A stretch of DNA of 64,000 nucleotides from assembly GCF_006345805.1 (NCBI RefSeq), contig NC_043012.1:50654001-50718000 (forward strand), written 5' to 3'. Positions within the stretch are counted from its first letter, which is position 1, and each line of letters opens with the position of its first letter. Positions 2,525 to 59,916 of this stretch are shown here, in pieces. A program made the position numbers and the translations under genes. Below the pieces are notes generated by a model that had not been told where the DNA came from, did no database searches, and saw only the letters and a program-made list of their open reading frames with translations. This DNA comes from Octopus sinensis (lineage: Eukaryota).

Positions 2525-3135
2525 GCCCTGATGCAGTACCAATGCCCTGATGCAGTACCAATGCCCTGATGCAGTATAAATGCCCTGATGCAGTACCAGG
2601 CAGTGGCTCTCATGGCTTCTGATCTTAACTGATTGGAAGTGTTATCATGTACATTGTTTTGTCTTGGTATAAAATATGGGCTACAGCAAATATTCTGCTC
2701 AGTACCACAGATTTGGTTGTCAGTTGTTTGACCTTAACCAGTTGAGCATGTCCCTTAGTGGCTGACGATATGTGCATCTCTGATCACGAGCAGAAGTAGT
2801 GGGGGGGCATCATAGCCATGTGTTGAGAGGGATTCTTTGGGGTTTGAATAATTCACCTCTGGAAACATGGGTGGTTCTTTCAACATCCTTAAGCAACCCT
2901 TATTTAGGGACCTTTTGAGCGGGATGGGCTACTCAACCTGAAGAAAATTCTAACTGGGCCCCACCTGCAAGGTCATGTGCTGTTTATCTTGATATGAGAT
3001 CACCATGTTGCGCACATATGGTTGAAATGCATGTGCCTGGTGTACCTTTATCAGACGGGTAGTCATGATGGGTATATTGGGCTTCGTATATTTTACCCCA
3101 GTGTCACTTTGATGGCATGAACTGCTCTCTCACTC
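2521..3135 (+). mobile_element. Non-coding ~560-bp interspersed element inserted in (AAT)n, first 19 nt tandemly repeated
   Basis: Near-identical inverted copy at 33394-33950, degenerate copy at ~4840-5165; both intact copies flanked on each side by (AAT)n. Orientation inferred from the AAT strand of the R4 LINE. Confidence 0.85.
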
Positions 3136-3159
3136 AATAATAATAATAATAATAATAAT

Positions 3160-3361
3160 GGCTTAAAATATTGCCACAAAGGCAGCAATTTTGGGAGAGG
3201 GATCAGTCGATTACATCGACCCCAGTGTTTATCTGGTACTTATTTTATCGAACCCGAAAGGATGGAAAGCAAAGTCGAAGTTGAACTGAGAAGGTAGCGA
3301 CGGGCGAAATACCACTAAACATTTCGTCCAGCGCGCTAACAACTCTTCCAGCACACCACCT
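3160..3361 (-). mobile_element. SINE family A (degenerate)
   Basis: GTCGATTACATCGACCCCAGTG and CCCGAAAGGATGGAAAGCAAAGTCGA motifs shared with other copies. Confidence 0.75.
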
Positions 3362-3414
3362 TATATAATAATAATAATAATAATAAACAATGATGATGAT
3401 GATGATGATGATGA

Positions 3415-3486
<72 letters not shown>

Positions 3487-3490
3487 TAAA

Positions 3491-3540
<50 letters not shown>

Positions 3541-3819
3541 TAGTTTAATTTTATCAATATAGAATATTTGAAAACTGTATAAGACGAATTATGAAGAGAA
3601 GTCACAAAATATGTATATTTTTAAGAGAAGGTGTGAATTCTTAGAATGGTGTACATCTACTTAAATATATGTAATTCATAATATAGGTATTTTGCACAAC
3701 GTTTATCACAATATTTAAATGACACTCTTTCATTTCCATTTGTTTTTAAAACTGATGTTTCAATTTCACCTCAATTTTCATTTCTAACTTTGAATATATT
3801 TTTCATCGCATGTGACTAG

Positions 3820-3985
<166 letters not shown>

Positions 3986-4143
3986 GCGCAAGTGTCGGTG
4001 TGTGGTGAGAAGCTTGCTACAAAACCACATGGTTCCGGGTTCAGTGATACTACGTGGCAACATGGGCAAGCGTCTGATACTATAGCTTGGGGCCTCCCAA
4101 AACCTTGTGCCTGGATATTCAGTAGCTGAAAAAGCCCCGTCGT
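3986..4143 (+). mobile_element. tRNA-derived SINE family B (CORE-like), 5' part
   Basis: GTGTGGTGAGAAGCTTGCT..AACCACATGGTTCCGGGTTCAGT head followed by CATGGGCAAG (CORE-like); copies at 40400, 46500, 55076. Confidence 0.7.
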
Positions 4144-4396
4144 GTGTGTGTGAAGGCATATAGCTCTTTTAAATTGAAAACGCAGTGCACGGGCATGTTA
4201 AACAACGACTTGGGTTAATCAGGAACTTCTGTAAGACTTCAAATTCAACTTACCCCAATGAATTTATTCTAAATGATTTGAGATACTAGTCCTGCCTTGA
4301 TTTTGAAATTTATTCTAGGATATATAAATAAACACACACACACACACATACATATATACATATATATAATGCATACATACACACACACACACACAC

Positions 4397-4467
<71 letters not shown>

Positions 4468-4839
4468 TTTAATCTTTTTACTTGGTTCAGTTATTTCATT
4501 GCGGACATGCTGGAGCACCGCGTTACAAACACATTCATACATAGATGCGCATGCATATGTGTAAATATAAAAGATCATTATATTGTCTCATCACATCCCG
4601 TCTATGTTACTGAAATGAGGGTGCTGATGGAGCAAACTAAAAATAACTATATTTACCAATAATCCCAGTATTGTTAGCTAAAATTCGTAATACAAGACGT
4701 ACAAGAACTGTAAATCAACAAACAGGAAACATTATATGAACATAAATATTCCTCTCTGATACACTGAAATTTAATAAGTAAACTACACTATTCGAACCAA
4801 TTTTTATTCATTATGACTCTCAAACTCATATTTATCTCA

Positions 4840-5165
4840 GCTACCATGTGCATCACTGATCTCGAGCAAGGGTAGCGAGAGCACACCAGAGGCATGTGTG
4901 GAGAGTGATACGTAGGGATTTGAATAATTCACCAACGGAAACGTTACTGTTCTATTCATCATACTTCAAACAACACTTATTGAGCGTCATTTTCGACCGA
5001 GATAGCCTACTGGACCTGAAGACAATTCTAACTGAGCCCCACTTGAAAGGTAAGGCGATGTTTGTTCTTCATATGAGGTCAGCAACACGCGCACATATGA
5101 ATCAGGTTATGATGCACGTGTCTGGAGTATCCTTGTCAGACGGGTGTATTGGCCATGCGGTGCAC
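4840..5165 (+). mobile_element. Old degenerate 3' half of the (AAT)n-targeting element
   Basis: ATGTGCATCACTGATCTCGAGCA, TTTGAATAATTCACC, ACCTGAAGACAATTCTAACTGAGCCCCAC, TCAGACGGGT match 2770-3060 in order. Confidence 0.75.
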
Positions 5166-5286
5166 TAACAATAATACTAATACTACTAATAATAACGAAT
5201 AACAACAACAGTTATTCTAACATAAAGATAATCAGAAAATATTTATAAACACCAAGATACAAATGTTGGTATATTTGTACTCGTAT

Positions 5287-5327
<41 letters not shown>

Positions 5328-5401
5328 TATACATATATATATATGTATATATATGTATATATATATATATATTAATATATGTATATATATATATATGTGT
5401 G

Positions 5402-5436
<35 letters not shown>

Positions 5437-5601
5437 ATAGCTATCGCCATACTAATATGGCATTCTTATAAAAATAAGAATAAAGCTGTCCGCTTATTAG
5501 CTCCATGAGGCCATCGCCTTAAGTTAGCTATTGATACACAAACTGTATCCATATAACCTTCGAACAAGGGAGGTCAGTCGCTCCACACTACTTGACCGGC
5601 A

Positions 5602-5643
5602 GCTACAGACGCGTTTCAGGGTATTGCCCCTTTTCAATGCAGC
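5602..5643 (-). ncRNA. Minimal type-I hammerhead ribozyme, U3-A8 core
   Basis: Minus strand: GCUGCA-UUGAAAA-GGGG caaua CCCU-GAAA-CGCG-UC/UGUAGC; 6-bp stem I, 4-bp stem II, palindromic ACGCGU stem III. Confidence 0.8.
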
Positions 5644-5963
5644 GTAGCCAGCCAGTAGGTGTCGCTTCCGACAATCTCTGTTCGATGGTTTTATTTACCT
5701 AGTTTCGGTGGAATACATCCACTTGTTTTCAATAATAGAAATATTAAAATTACTAAGTCTCTCTAAAAGAGAACAGCGGCAGCGTTCCCGGAAAATAATA
5801 GCTATCGCCATACTAATATGGCATTCTTATAAAAATAAGAATAAAGCTGTCCGCTTATTAGCTCCATGAGGCCATCGCCTTAAGTTAGCTATTTGATACA
5901 CAAACTGTATCCATATAACCTTCGAACAAGGGAGGAGAGTCGCTCCACACTACTTGACCGGCA

Positions 5964-6005
5964 GCTACAGACGCGTTTCAGGGTATTGCCCCTTTTCAAT
6001 GTAGC
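5964..6005 (-). ncRNA. Minimal type-I hammerhead ribozyme, second copy
   Basis: GCUACA-UUGAAAA-GGGG caaua CCCU-GAAA-CGCG-UC/UGUAGC. Confidence 0.8.
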
Positions 6006-6191
6006 TGCCGGTCAAGTAGTGTGGAGCGACTGACCTCCCTTGTTCGAAGGTTATATGGATACAGTTTGTGTATCAATAGCTAACTTAAGGCGATGGCCTC
6101 ATGGAGCTAATAAGCGGACAGCTTTATTCTTATTTTTATAAGAATGCCATATTAGTATGGCGATAGCTATTATTATACATATATATATGTG

Positions 6192-6257
<66 letters not shown>

Positions 6258-6898
6258 TATATGTACACACACATATACATACACCCCCGCATACATTTAC
6301 ATATGATTTTGTATTTACGTATATATATGAATGTTTCTCGTATGTGTATATGCGTTGTACATAAACATATGTATAACTGTGTATACTATAAGTACATCTA
6401 CAAGAATCGTCCAATGATTGATAGTGCTTTACTTCATGTTTGTGTTTCTAATTATATAATACATTTTGGCTTGAAAAATATAATAAAATTACATCGAAGA
6501 TATATCGCTTTCCCCCTCCGGAGAATAAACTTTCGTTAAACTTAAGTAATGTTACGACGGAAAATTTATTCAAATTAACGCCTTGAAAACCTCAACGCTC
6601 TGCTAAAATAGGCGTCTTTCCAAAATTTTATTCAGTACAGCGAAATTTGATATCCTCTGTCTCATGTTTATTTTTTTTTTTTTGTAATTTATTTATATAT
6701 TTTTGTCATCAAGTCTTCTTCGAATTATCTAGAATAACTATGTCTGTCTACATATATCTATCTATAAACATATATGTGCATGTGTGTACACACGCAGATA
6801 TATAGATATATATACATGTGTGTGTGTGTATATATATATATTCATGCATGCACGTGTGCATGTGCATATATATGTGTGCGTGTGCGTGTATCTATATC

Positions 6899-6932
<34 letters not shown>

Positions 6933-7387
6933 AGTATATACACACACACACATATATATATGCGTATGTAGAAAATAATTTAGAAATATAGACAAATGTA
7001 TATGTATATCTATCTATATATATATATGTATGTACGTGTGTTTGTTTGTGTGCTTGTGTGTGTGTGTGCATGTGTGTGTGCGTGTGTGTGTGTGTGCCTC
7101 TGTGTGTGTGTGTGTGTTCGTATATGTGTATGTGTGCATGTTTGCTGATAGAAGTGCCCGATAACAGACATAACGAGATCTAATACATTCCTATAACCAC
7201 TGAAACGTAAATTCACGCTTACAAATCTGCATGCATTTTATTTCAAATAAATCTAAAAATATATTCTGTTACGTGCTCATCTGAATCAGGCAGTACATCA
7301 TTGACATGTGTCTGTATATCTATATCTATCAATCTATCTATATATATATATATATGTATGTATGTATGTATGTAGTATGTATGTATG

Positions 7388-7442
<55 letters not shown>

Positions 7443-7459
7443 GTATGTTATATATATAT

Positions 7460-7490
<31 letters not shown>

Positions 7491-7495
7491 GTATG

Positions 7496-7573
<78 letters not shown>

Positions 7574-8837
7574 AATATACATGTAAGCGGAAGTTGTTAT
7601 AAGGTGAGTGGGCATGTGCGTAATATTTGAAGTGAATTGCATATCTCGTGGTCTTTTATAAGAGGAATGTATGCGTAAGTTCGAAGATTCCTCTGAAATT
7701 CTTAAGCTCTGGAATTTAGTCTCTTTACGCATTATGTGAGGGTATATATCAATGTTAATCAAACTGCTCGTAGATTTCTGCATTTTCTATCTAAATCATA
7801 CGTTATGATCTCTATCATCTATTGGGAATGCTAACAGCAGGATAGATATTTCGACGGAAGTGAGATTCACAAAATATTTTATCGTGTAATTCTCCTGCAT
7901 TCATACAGACGCAAACATATGCACACCTCACACCATCAACGCATAGATAATATAGTTTTGTGAATTAATTACTATTGGTGTTATGCATATACACAAACTC
8001 CCCCCACACACACACATACAAACGCACAGACGTGTATGTGTGTGTGTCTCTGTATTCATTTCGTGTACGAACGTACACAGAAATGGATGCTGTTTGACAC
8101 ATATCTATATATATATATATATATACATGCTCGTCCATGCATGTATAAATATACATAATACAAATATATATAAACGTATATATAACTATATATATATATA
8201 TGTATATATGTAAACACACACACAGACACACACATATATATATATATATACATACATATATGTTCATACATGGAAGCATAAATATAAACATCTATATACA
8301 TATACTATCGCACACATATCCACTTTCCAACATAACACACAAACATTTATTCATGAATGCGTGTGTTTGTGTGTATGTGCGTGGGTTTTTGTATTCCTGT
8401 GAATATTAGAGAAAGAGAGAGAGAGTGAGAAAAGAGAGAGATAGTGAGTGAGTGAGTGAGTGAGATAGAGAGAAAGAGGGAGAGAGAGGCAAATATAGAG
8501 AATATGGTTTTCATCATATGCAACTACATATACTGATGTGAATCAGAGAGAGAATTTTTAAATATATAAATATATCCCTTCTCCCTTTCGTTCATCAATT
8601 TTAAGTTCACACTACGACCACCATCAAAAAGCTAACAAAACAAAATCCCGTTACGTACAATATGTTTTATGTCGAATAACAATAAAAAACACTTCTTTAC
8701 AATATAAATTTACGAATGAGTAAATTTATGTATCTTTATATGTTCTTTGTGATACTAGTCGGTATAATACGTTACGAATATGACCGTATTCTCTGCCATT
8801 TTTTCTATCTCTCCTTCAGTTAGACTGATATGCAGGA

Positions 8838-8884
<47 letters not shown>

Positions 8885-8989
8885 AAGAGATAGAGAGACA
8901 GACAGAGAGAGAGAGACAGAGAGGGAGAAAGTGAAAGAGAGAGAATAATTTTATAAAATTATTTTAGCATTTTCTATCCTGACTTGTTT

Positions 8990-9029
<40 letters not shown>

Positions 9030-16830: not shown

Positions 16831-18575
16831 GGTAACTAGCCTGCCTCGAACTGACGATATATTTTTCGCCTGTAATTACTGATATTTTTTTCTGATATTA
16901 TCTGGTGCTGTCTATTATATGATGCATTGTCATTGCTGTTCTTTATTCCTAAAATACTGGTAATCCACGAACAGTTTCGCATATCTGAAATTATATTGCG
17001 TCATATGACACGTACATTTTATTTTTTAGATTATTAGAAAGTGATCTGCAGAGTGAATCTCAGTGCGATTTATAGGTGAAAGCATGTCCCGTAAAAAAAT
17101 AAAACAGAGCGATGCCCAATGCAGAAGTAGAAGCTGATTGCAAATAGGAATTTCCTATATAAAGCAAAAAGCCCACGAAATCCACCCAAAGCGTATAATG
17201 AAGAAGAGTATAGTAAGTACCAAACGCATTGTCTCCGGATGCTTACTCGAACTCATTGGAATATATTGCAAATTGGAGATTTTACATAGAGACTCTTGTA
17301 CCATGCTTTTAAAATACGAATGGGAAAATGGATGTATAAACATGCACGAGAAATGTTAGATTCTATTTATTCAACTACAAGCAAACAATTTACGATATAC
17401 AAGAGAAAGCGAAAAAGGGCAAAGTGAAATTCTAAGCTGTGAAATAAAAGCAAGCATTGAACTTCCGATGTAAATGATTAATCAGCTTGTTCAAACTTAG
17501 TAATAAACTGAATAATATAAACTGACCAGGTCTGAGTAAAATTTACGATGAAAAATTTTGCATTGTAAAATCTAAATTATCCCCTATATGAATATAAATA
17601 CCTATTATAAAATTACGAAATATTGATCCAAGTAACATACAGCGTATTCGTAAATGAGGTGAAGAAGTCGGACACATAAAACGGGGCAGGACAAACATGA
17701 GAATTGAAGGAAAATCGAACGCCGAAAGTACAAATAATCCATTACATTATATATAATGAAGACCGACGACGTATTCAAAGTTTTATACTTATGTCCGCAC
17801 ATAAGAAGCATGTGGATATTCGGGACAAAATAGATTTTAAAATAAACAAACCTTTGAATGAGCACATTGTAATGTGGCAGGAACTTCAAATACATCTATT
17901 GCTGTTTCAAAGTAATCAAAAGAATGTGATGTAATATATATTTAAAACAAATGAAACAGAATCAAAAGCACTACCGGCTTTTTTTATTGTTATAATTATA
18001 GAGTGACATAGTCGCAATTATAACCGCGATGTAATGCAACAAGCTGTCTATTGCATCAGTGAAGATGGAACAAAAAGCAGCTTAATTTGCTGCTAGTATT
18101 CAAAATCAAACTAAAATTTGCGTTGGCCAAATGAACGCTGCTTTGAAAATTTGAATCTCATTTTCATGAGTATATCATTCATAGGTCACAGTTATAAAAG
18201 ATACATATAAATGATACTAAACATCGCGAAATGAGAGAAAATATAAATGGGAATACCCTTGCAAATGTTCGGTAATTAAAAAGACTTGTTTAACAATAAA
18301 TAAATAATAAAAGGTACCAATTTGTGACAAATGTCCTATTACATAATAGAAACATCCTGTTTCATATAATACACGATTATACACTGCAAACAAATGAAAG
18401 CATAACAACGAAAATCCACAAATACACAATATATATAACTCATTTGAAACTGGAAAAAAAAAGAGCGAACCAGACATATACTAAGATAGGAGGCACCGAG
18501 AATGAAACATACATTTCACCAAATCAAAAAGAGAATAAGTCTATTAAAATCCAAACTAATAATTATGAGAAGATT

Positions 18576-21565
<2,990 letters not shown>

Positions 21566-21611
21566 AATAATAATAATGATAATAATAATAATAATAATAC
21601 TAATAGTGATT

Positions 21612-59493: not shown

Positions 59494-59916
59494 GAAATAC
59501 CTGTTTCGTTACTACCCACAAGGGGCTAAACACAGAGAGGACAAACAAGGACAGACAAACGGATTAAGTCGATTATATCGACCCCAGTGCGTAACCGGTG
59601 CTTATGTAATCTACCCCGAAAAGATGAAATGCAAAGTCGACCTCGGCAGAATGCTAACTCAGAACGTAGCGACAGACGAAATACCTATTTCTTTATTACC
59701 CACAAGGGGCTAAACATACAGGGACAAACAAGGATAGACATAGGTATTAAGTCGATTACATCGACCCCAGTGCGTAACTGGTATTTAATTTATCGACCCC
59801 GAAAGGATGAAATGCAAAGTCGACCTCGGCGGAATTTGAACTCAGATCGTAGTGACAGACGAAATACCGCTAATCATTTCGCCCGGCGTGCTAACGATTT
59901 TGCCAGCTCGCCGCCT
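59494..59916 (-). mobile_element. SINE family A dimer plus start of a third unit
   Basis: GAAATACC at 59494, 59678, 59861 (period 184/183); intact head at 59916. Confidence 0.88.

Follow-up and report, generated by a model that had tools for sequence, protein, structure and literature searches.

Sequence evidence for a non-LTR retrozyme-type family in Octopus sinensis with a predicted double hammerhead and Penelope-type insertion ends

The window, a stretch of 64,000 nucleotides of the Octopus sinensis genome (NC_043012.1, positions 50,654,001 to 50,718,000), contains a short repeat in which predicted hammerhead ribozymes lie within (TA)n. The locus raises the question of what this repeat is, how its ribozymes would act and which enzyme has placed it there. 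An earlier note proposed a retrozyme mobilised in trans by a Penelope-like reverse transcriptase (RT). We consider it highly probable that the locus belongs to a multi-copy non-coding tandem repeat, with a hammerhead predicted to cleave as a double hammerhead, which was likely inserted in (TA)n in trans by the RT/GIY-YIG protein of a Penelope-like element (PLE).

Positions 5434-6174 of the window are one insertion in (TA)n, made of two arms that face each other head to head. Unit positions m1-m362 follow the RNA sense, with m1 the first base past the predicted cut; they correspond to window 5969 down to 5608. The minus-sense arm reads m327-362 + m1-362 + m1-175, i.e. 1.58 units. The direct copies, at 5434-5643 and at 5795-6005, share 98% identity at a spacing of 361-362, and the inverted arm (6000-6173) matches the complement of 5434-5607 at every one of 174 nt (100%). 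The earlier description of the locus as about 1.6 direct copies of a 361-362-bp unit plus an inverted arm in (TA)n, with no ORF, holds in every part; the longest stop-to-stop frame within 5434-6174 is 73 aa. The features are as follows.

5291-5436, no strand: left (TA)n target microsatellite
5434..5607, minus strand: partial unit m1-m175 that terminates the long arm; on its outer side lies the short (m175) 3' end
5580..5668, minus strand: predicted hammerhead 1 with extended helix I; the core together with the 6-bp helix I occupies 5602-5643
5608..5969, minus strand: full 362-nt unit, cut site to cut site; 42% GC, predicted branched rod closed by helix I
5618, likewise 5980, minus strand: U for the usual C at hammerhead position 11.1, by comparison with typical copies
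5732..5794, minus strand: 63-nt 'tail' m176-m238, between the family's two alternative 3' ends; here in the middle unit only
5964..6005, minus strand: predicted hammerhead 2; cut site 5970/5969, with 5970-5999 native
6000..6174, plus strand: inverted arm m1-m176, starting at the cut site; RNA sense on the plus strand
6174-6247, no strand: right (TA)n target microsatellite, no mirror image of the left flank

Other repeats are also present in the window. Broken ORF pieces of a non-LTR retrotransposon (RVT_1, zf-RVT) occupy 18767-21200 on the plus strand and are bracketed by (TAA)n tracts (18557-18687, 21566-21605); we take this element to resemble R4/Dong-type elements. Two-copy tandem repeats of 183-186 bp at 854-1240 and 59494-59868 are similar to each other and probably form a SINE-like family.

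On the minus strand the hammerhead motif runs in the order helix I (6 bp), UUGAAAA, helix II (4 bp), GAAA, CGCG, UC and helix I'. The core is the U3-A8 variant of the type I hammerhead, which replaces the canonical C3-G8. Standard screens miss such families because of this core, and Rfam returned no hammerhead match at E <= 5 (3000-9000) or at E <= 10 (5540-6060). Rfam microRNA matches in this region of the window were set aside as (TA)n noise. Where complete type I hammerheads had been reported at 5602-5643 and 5964-6005, the coordinates and the GUC cut sites (5608/5607 and 5970/5969) stand, but hammerhead 2 is native only over 5970-5999 because the 5' strand of its helix I (6000-6005) comes from the inverted arm. 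The helix III palindrome ACGCGU is seen in both hammerheads, as had been claimed. The term 'minimal' does not fit them, since helix I has 6 bp and, in the predicted fold, continues beyond a bulge into a long extension.

The same motif is widespread in the genome. The hammerhead pattern gave 2,240 genomic matches against 1 in the control. Among 156 de-duplicated motif contexts, a few of them false matches, the U3-A8 core is present in 153, position 7 is freely variable, and the helix III centre is palindromic in 142 (CGCG 111, CATG 28, CTAG 2, TGCA 1). Between subfamilies, helices I and II covary and helix III remains palindromic (ACGCGU, ACAUGU, ACUAGU); sister families have a fourth palindrome. 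A looser pattern (6,648 matches, control 675) reveals further families with ACCGGU.

Covariation was scored, against a structure that we specified, on 14 copies from 23 representatives, picked for diversity and for having no junction cut. Across these diverged copies 95.6% of cells pair, compared with 24-48% in slid controls, and two-sided changes occur in 8 of 23 pairs (among them 3/6 in helix I, 2/4 in helix II and 1/3 in helix III). The extended helix I is less clean in the 14 copies, with 90.6% paired and 4 of 10 pairs deviating by mismatches alone. 'Further pair types' were no better in these copies than in shuffles (481 of 500); the 14 rows are related and the shuffle numbers are therefore not probabilities. 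Read as support rather than as a probability, the covariation shows a putative ribozyme fold under selection.

The 362-nt unit has a predicted fold with z = -6.4, which none of 100 shuffles equalled, and the closed rod is kept in the consensus fold across subfamilies down to ~78% identity. When the whole minus strand is folded to minimum energy, the two ACGCGU pair with each other and the helix I strands are swapped. The earlier proposal that both ribozymes fold as one intramolecular, palindrome-mediated dimer is thus predicted by folding, with an inter-ribozyme helix III pair probability of 0.94 in the window, and is backed by covariation. When dimer folds were scored, 14 of the 22 loci supplied had a scorable pair and 8 were without one. 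Helix III has P = 0.51-0.94 in 9 of 10 other family pairs, P = 0 in the one family pair with unlike palindromes and P = 0.01-0.52 in 4 sister-family pairs. The predicted ribozyme is a double (dimeric) hammerhead in which a self-complementary helix III is retained despite sequence change; the geometry of such dimers goes back to Forster et al. 1988, as cited in PMC4209133. Against it stands a published test of 9 predicted retrozyme dimers, of which only 1 cleaved (bioRxiv 10.64898/2026.07.22.740005).

The window copy departs from this pattern in helix II. Both of its hammerheads have U at position 11.1, where typical copies have C, and the predicted helix II register shifts as a result: the canonical register has P = 0.03 here vs 0.86-0.99 in other copies. 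The change may cripple both window ribozymes, and the copy is possibly inactive. Because both ribozymes carry the change, the window copy is a poor substrate for a cleavage test.

How the unit is distributed was followed across the window's own genome (2.72 Gb), stretches of which are given L numbers. A DNA search with the unit returned 1,465 candidates, and the best 40, which were scored, are full units of 95-100% identity, many of them in tandem. A 19-mer of the unit has 3,586 exact matches in the genome (control 0). The first 100 of these matches represent 54 insertions, which extrapolates to ~2,000 insertions. Arrays of 1 to ~7 complete units, with nothing between the units, lie on many contigs; the genome-wide search for monomer arrays that had been suggested thus finds tandem arrays, and the core is conserved in other copies. 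Older subfamilies (~75-88% identity) have the same unit length and ends, and units diverge by 0.65% within one young insertion vs 1.55% between insertions. These properties agree with a sequence-level definition of a non-LTR retrozyme: a unit of 362 nt and 42% GC, non-coding, dispersed in tandem without LTR organisation and stably self-paired. The 362-nt unit has no match to Pol III A/B boxes. Genome-wide tandem arrays, covariation and the predicted double-hammerhead fold support the retrozyme-type reading, and on this evidence from DNA we regard the repeat as a real and young non-LTR retrozyme-type family. Unit sequences are also present as contigs in four sequencing runs, guessed to be RNA although none is on record as such, and these contigs show neither strand, ends nor circles. 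A 392-nt contig (362+30) in two runs of unknown kind is explained equally by tandem DNA and by a circle.

Several loci show additional features. In L112, L146 and L148 unit variants alternate or form blocks within arrays, as would result from local amplification in tandem, from a multi-unit template or from an error of assembly. Insertions occur twice with common flanks in L004/L009, L186/L187, L072/L213, L111 and L205, through segmental duplication or assembly redundancy. A second retrozyme-type family with a 360-nt unit (L261-L272, e.g. L262:1251-1610 on the plus strand; 1,934 candidates) is unrelated to the 362-nt unit save around the ribozyme (U3-A8 core, helix III ACCGGU). It has the same closed rod, and its head-to-head arms end ~183 and ~226 nt past the cut.

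The anatomy of the insertions carries the information on how they were made. We mapped 112 insertions, 54 in genome order via the 19-mer and 58 chosen by their long end (60 loci fetched, 2 duplicates removed). Arms are head to head in 69 insertions, 37 are one-armed and 6 are complex. Outer ends cluster at m167-179 or m231-241, which gives the family two 3' ends, 175 and 238 nt past the cut site. Both ends are canonical in 63 two-armed insertions, where the combination is long+short in 61, long+long in 2 and short+short in none; in the set not selected for an end, it is long+short in 28/28. Within 14 nt of canonical 3' ends (AT)3 follows in 73/82 cases of the unselected set, and long ends joined to (AT)n occur 1,162 times in the genome (control 0). 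Inner ends are variable, and ends are fixed on the RNA 3' side only. The arms overlap at the junction by at least 2 nt in 49 of the 69 head-to-head insertions, a raw count with no null. Inner (5') ends have a hot spot at m35-m55 (window 5915-5935) with 32/164 stops (p = 5e-7, one of 14 bins), and the m35-m55 strand pairs with m285-305 in the predicted rod. A target-site duplication is not discernible, the insertions lying inside (TA)n.

These insertions have the features of PLE-type integration, namely an inverted 5'-truncated copy, a tail at one end only and a microsatellite target. For PLEs, the hallmarks described are a truncated copy in inverted orientation and, at one end, a tail of 30-40 bp (PMC8557442). 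A purified PLE protein is reported to nick both strands and to extend them from two sites inside the RNA, between which the tail lies (PMC11167929). The 63-nt segment between the short and the long 3' end of the 362-nt family is a Penelope 'tail' in this sense.

Taken alone, the ends of the window copy are perfect inverted repeats in (TA)n, as would be expected of a TA-targeting DNA transposon (MITE) with 174-bp terminal inverted repeats, and the unit blocks or alternations in L112, L146 and L148 suggest local DNA amplification, as in satellite spread at the DNA level. We judge an origin of either kind extremely improbable. The symmetric short+short combination is absent from the other 63 canonical two-armed insertions, 37/112 insertions are one-armed, the inner ends vary while only the RNA 3' side is fixed, and a covarying ribozyme would be left unexplained. 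A MITE in particular, with its fixed symmetric terminal inverted repeats and uniform length, is largely refuted by the asymmetric ends.

Under PLE-type integration, the window copy is exceptional. It has two short ends, the tail is absent from its ends, and its inverted arm begins at the cut site as an exact copy of the far terminal unit; the inverted arm and 5434-5607 share a one-base deletion that the middle unit is without. An assembly fold-back artefact is considered unlikely, because the left and right (TA)n flanks are not mirror images. No piece bridging junction 5999/6000 was among those listed from four sequencing runs of unknown kind. The copy is a rare both-ends-short case, possibly produced by fold-back of the cDNA via helix I complementarity; twin priming at one site and gene conversion are alternative origins.

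Because it has no ORF with RT and GIY-YIG, the element is not an autonomous PLE. Among 5,029 GIY-YIG candidates in the same genome, of which 150 were scored, two young families combine RT, a CxxxxCxxC linker and GIY-YIG. Both insert in (TA)n, carry the U3-A8 motif with a palindromic helix III (ACAUGU, ACCGGU) and have two 3' ends ~40 nt apart, and the second forms long+short head-to-head pairs in L243 and L244. Their cut-to-end distances are ~56-66 and ~94-105 nt vs 175 and 238 in the 362-nt family. Beyond the ribozyme core, no homology to the unit was found in 30 GIY-YIG loci, 20 wider loci and 6 second-family loci. Among the scored candidates, none was an autonomous element whose terminal repeat is homologous to the unit; as these are 150 of 5,029, the true partner may be unseen. 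The two families show that such a mechanism is active in this genome, and we treat them as helper candidates, not as proven partners. Since the insertion ends of the unit match those of Penelope-like elements, such elements likely copy it. The proposed mobilisation by a Penelope-like RT gains support from a tail and a (TA)n target that are common to autonomous elements of the same genome.

The partial coverage of the GIY-YIG candidates also leaves room for a different identity, in which the repeat is a truncated terminal repeat (pLTR) of an unfound autonomous Penelope-like element rather than an independent retrozyme. It is common for truncated PLE ends to carry hammerheads and to stand in head-to-head pairs (PMC4209133), and L247-L253 provide cases here. 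A pLTR does not readily account for arrays of up to ~7 complete units with nothing between them, or for a closed rod kept across subfamilies to ~78% identity, and a PLE-RT match was found at 1 of 60 long-end loci, ~900 nt outside the element. We therefore consider the pLTR reading improbable.

Some further observations concern the Penelope-like elements themselves. AT-rich families with a U3-A8 hammerhead-like motif and ACCGGU, with short and long ends in (TA)n (L247-L253, L260), are probably the ends of other PLE families. At L097:7021 on the plus strand a hammerhead motif has the canonical C3-G8 and a palindrome that is longer (ACUCGAGU), and its downstream end is like the long end of the sister family. 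In three Penelope-like families (L091:2044, L242:2879, L097) the start of the RT/GIY-YIG frame has an in-frame U UUU UUA heptamer. An upstream ORF overlaps it in the 0 frame in 2 of the 3 families and is 44% identical between families. The heptamer is a candidate for programmed -1 frameshifting; no stimulatory hairpin was predicted at the site, and a literature search on such a frameshift returned nothing.

Our preferred explanation, a retrozyme-type RNA copied by a PLE protein in trans, can be laid out as a series of steps. Tandem units would be transcribed. The rod of each unit is predicted to bring successive cores together, so that the palindromes pair as helix III and the helix I strands swap, a pairing for which covariation is seen. 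Cleavage would release a 362-nt monomer, and by analogy with published retrozymes a host ligase would circularise it. The PLE protein would nick both (TA)n strands and start reverse transcription at m175 and m238, where the ends are observed. Two cDNAs would run back variable lengths, mostly past the cut site, as the structure of the insertions indicates, and would be joined in head-to-head orientation, frequently where a few bases are shared. In the published model, the monomer circle is reverse-transcribed into tandems (PMC7229834, PMC7761336).

The same family and the same PLE partner are also compatible with an integration template that is an uncut multi-unit transcript, for which neither ribozyme nor circle would be needed in copying. 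This differs from the preferred explanation in mechanism only and agrees with its identity of the element; we give it close to an even chance, slightly on the lower side. The cut site does not act as an RT stop: among 112 arms that reach m6, 106 pass it and 6 stop within 5 nt (p = 0.24). A ligated circle would likewise read through the cut site. Terminal units share alleles that are absent from inner units in L136 (in register, both arms), L158, L144 and the window, which favours a multi-unit template because a monomer circle cannot give such sharing; similar patterns can arise by gene conversion between arms or by local tandem duplication, and in-register copying of both arms is not significant (36/96, p = 0.22, 33 loci). 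At sites covered by at least 3 units, 11 private alleles are fixed in all units of an insertion vs 23 partial and 95 single, and the fixed ones favour a one-unit bottleneck because a bottleneck predicts them. The helix II change in both ribozymes of the window copy is in keeping with copying of uncut RNA, as is the report that hammerhead mutants do not block PLE insertion in vitro (PMC11167929), whereas covariation indicates a ribozyme fold under selection.

A more specific proposal is that at least two unrelated 360-nt ribozyme RNAs form circles through cleavage as double hammerheads and are copied by a Neptune-type Penelope RT that primes internally at twin sites. We put this forward tentatively and hold it to be somewhat doubtful. 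If true, this would be the first animal retrozyme system with a helper class readable from insertion ends, and young intact helpers together with thousands of phased insertions would make the circle-versus-linear template question decidable in vitro. With one RNA and one protein, the identity of the helper, the part that the ribozyme plays and the model of a circular template can be tested directly, given a PLE tail in 61/63 insertions and helper candidates of the same genome with the same target and core variant.

What is new here is the insertion anatomy, i.e. head-to-head arms in (TA)n with two 3' ends. The literature search, which left most subscription papers and Repbase outside, found no cephalopod retrozyme and no such insertion anatomy for retrozymes, and the main text of PMC7229834 has no match for 'inverted', 'microsatellite', 'octopus' or 'cephalopod'. 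The animal non-LTR retrozymes described there (Cervera & de la Pena 2020, PMC7229834) include mussel repeats of 350-390 bp. The 362-nt family is like them in its non-coding tandem unit of 150-450 bp with GC below 50% and one type I hammerhead per unit, and in its self-paired rod closed by helix I with a weak palindromic helix III. It differs in the U3-A8 core, in (TA)n targeting without visible target duplication, and in head-to-head arms with two fixed 3' ends; a target-site duplication, if any, is > 4 bp in the non-LTR retrozyme definition. Expression as circRNA has been shown for the retrozymes of PMC7229834, whereas the 362-nt family is known here from DNA.

The U3-A8 hammerhead variant is known from Schistosoma Cercyon PLEs, with which the family has the U3-A8 core covariation in common (PMC4209133). 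Unlike in Cercyon, the motif lies in a tandem non-coding unit, its helix I is extended and its helix III is a palindrome of 6 nt. The family resembles EN+ PLEs with a CX2-5CxxC linker (Neptune/Nematis type; PMC8557442) and PAc of Anolis (PMC11167929) in its partial tandems, inverted 5'-truncated copy, one-end tail, microsatellite or AT-rich target and two internal RT starts downstream of the hammerhead. It differs from them in having no ORF, a tail of 63 nt vs 30-40 and ends 175/238 nt from the cut.

Animal retrozymes have no motif that reveals the mobilising retrotransposon, according to a review (PMC7761336). They have been argued to be non-autonomous PLE derivatives in a preprint (Li, Clavereau & Pollet, 2026, bioRxiv 10.64898/2026.07.22.740005), and the 362-nt family has PLE co-occurrence and a PLE-type ribozyme in common with the retrozymes treated there. 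That preprint draws its evidence, mostly from vertebrates, on co-distribution and on pLTR homology; in the loci compared here no pLTR homology was found, and an integration signature provides the evidence. The helper class of animal retrozymes, proposed so far from PLE co-occurrence and then from the homology of the 2026 preprint, is here proposed from the insertion ends.
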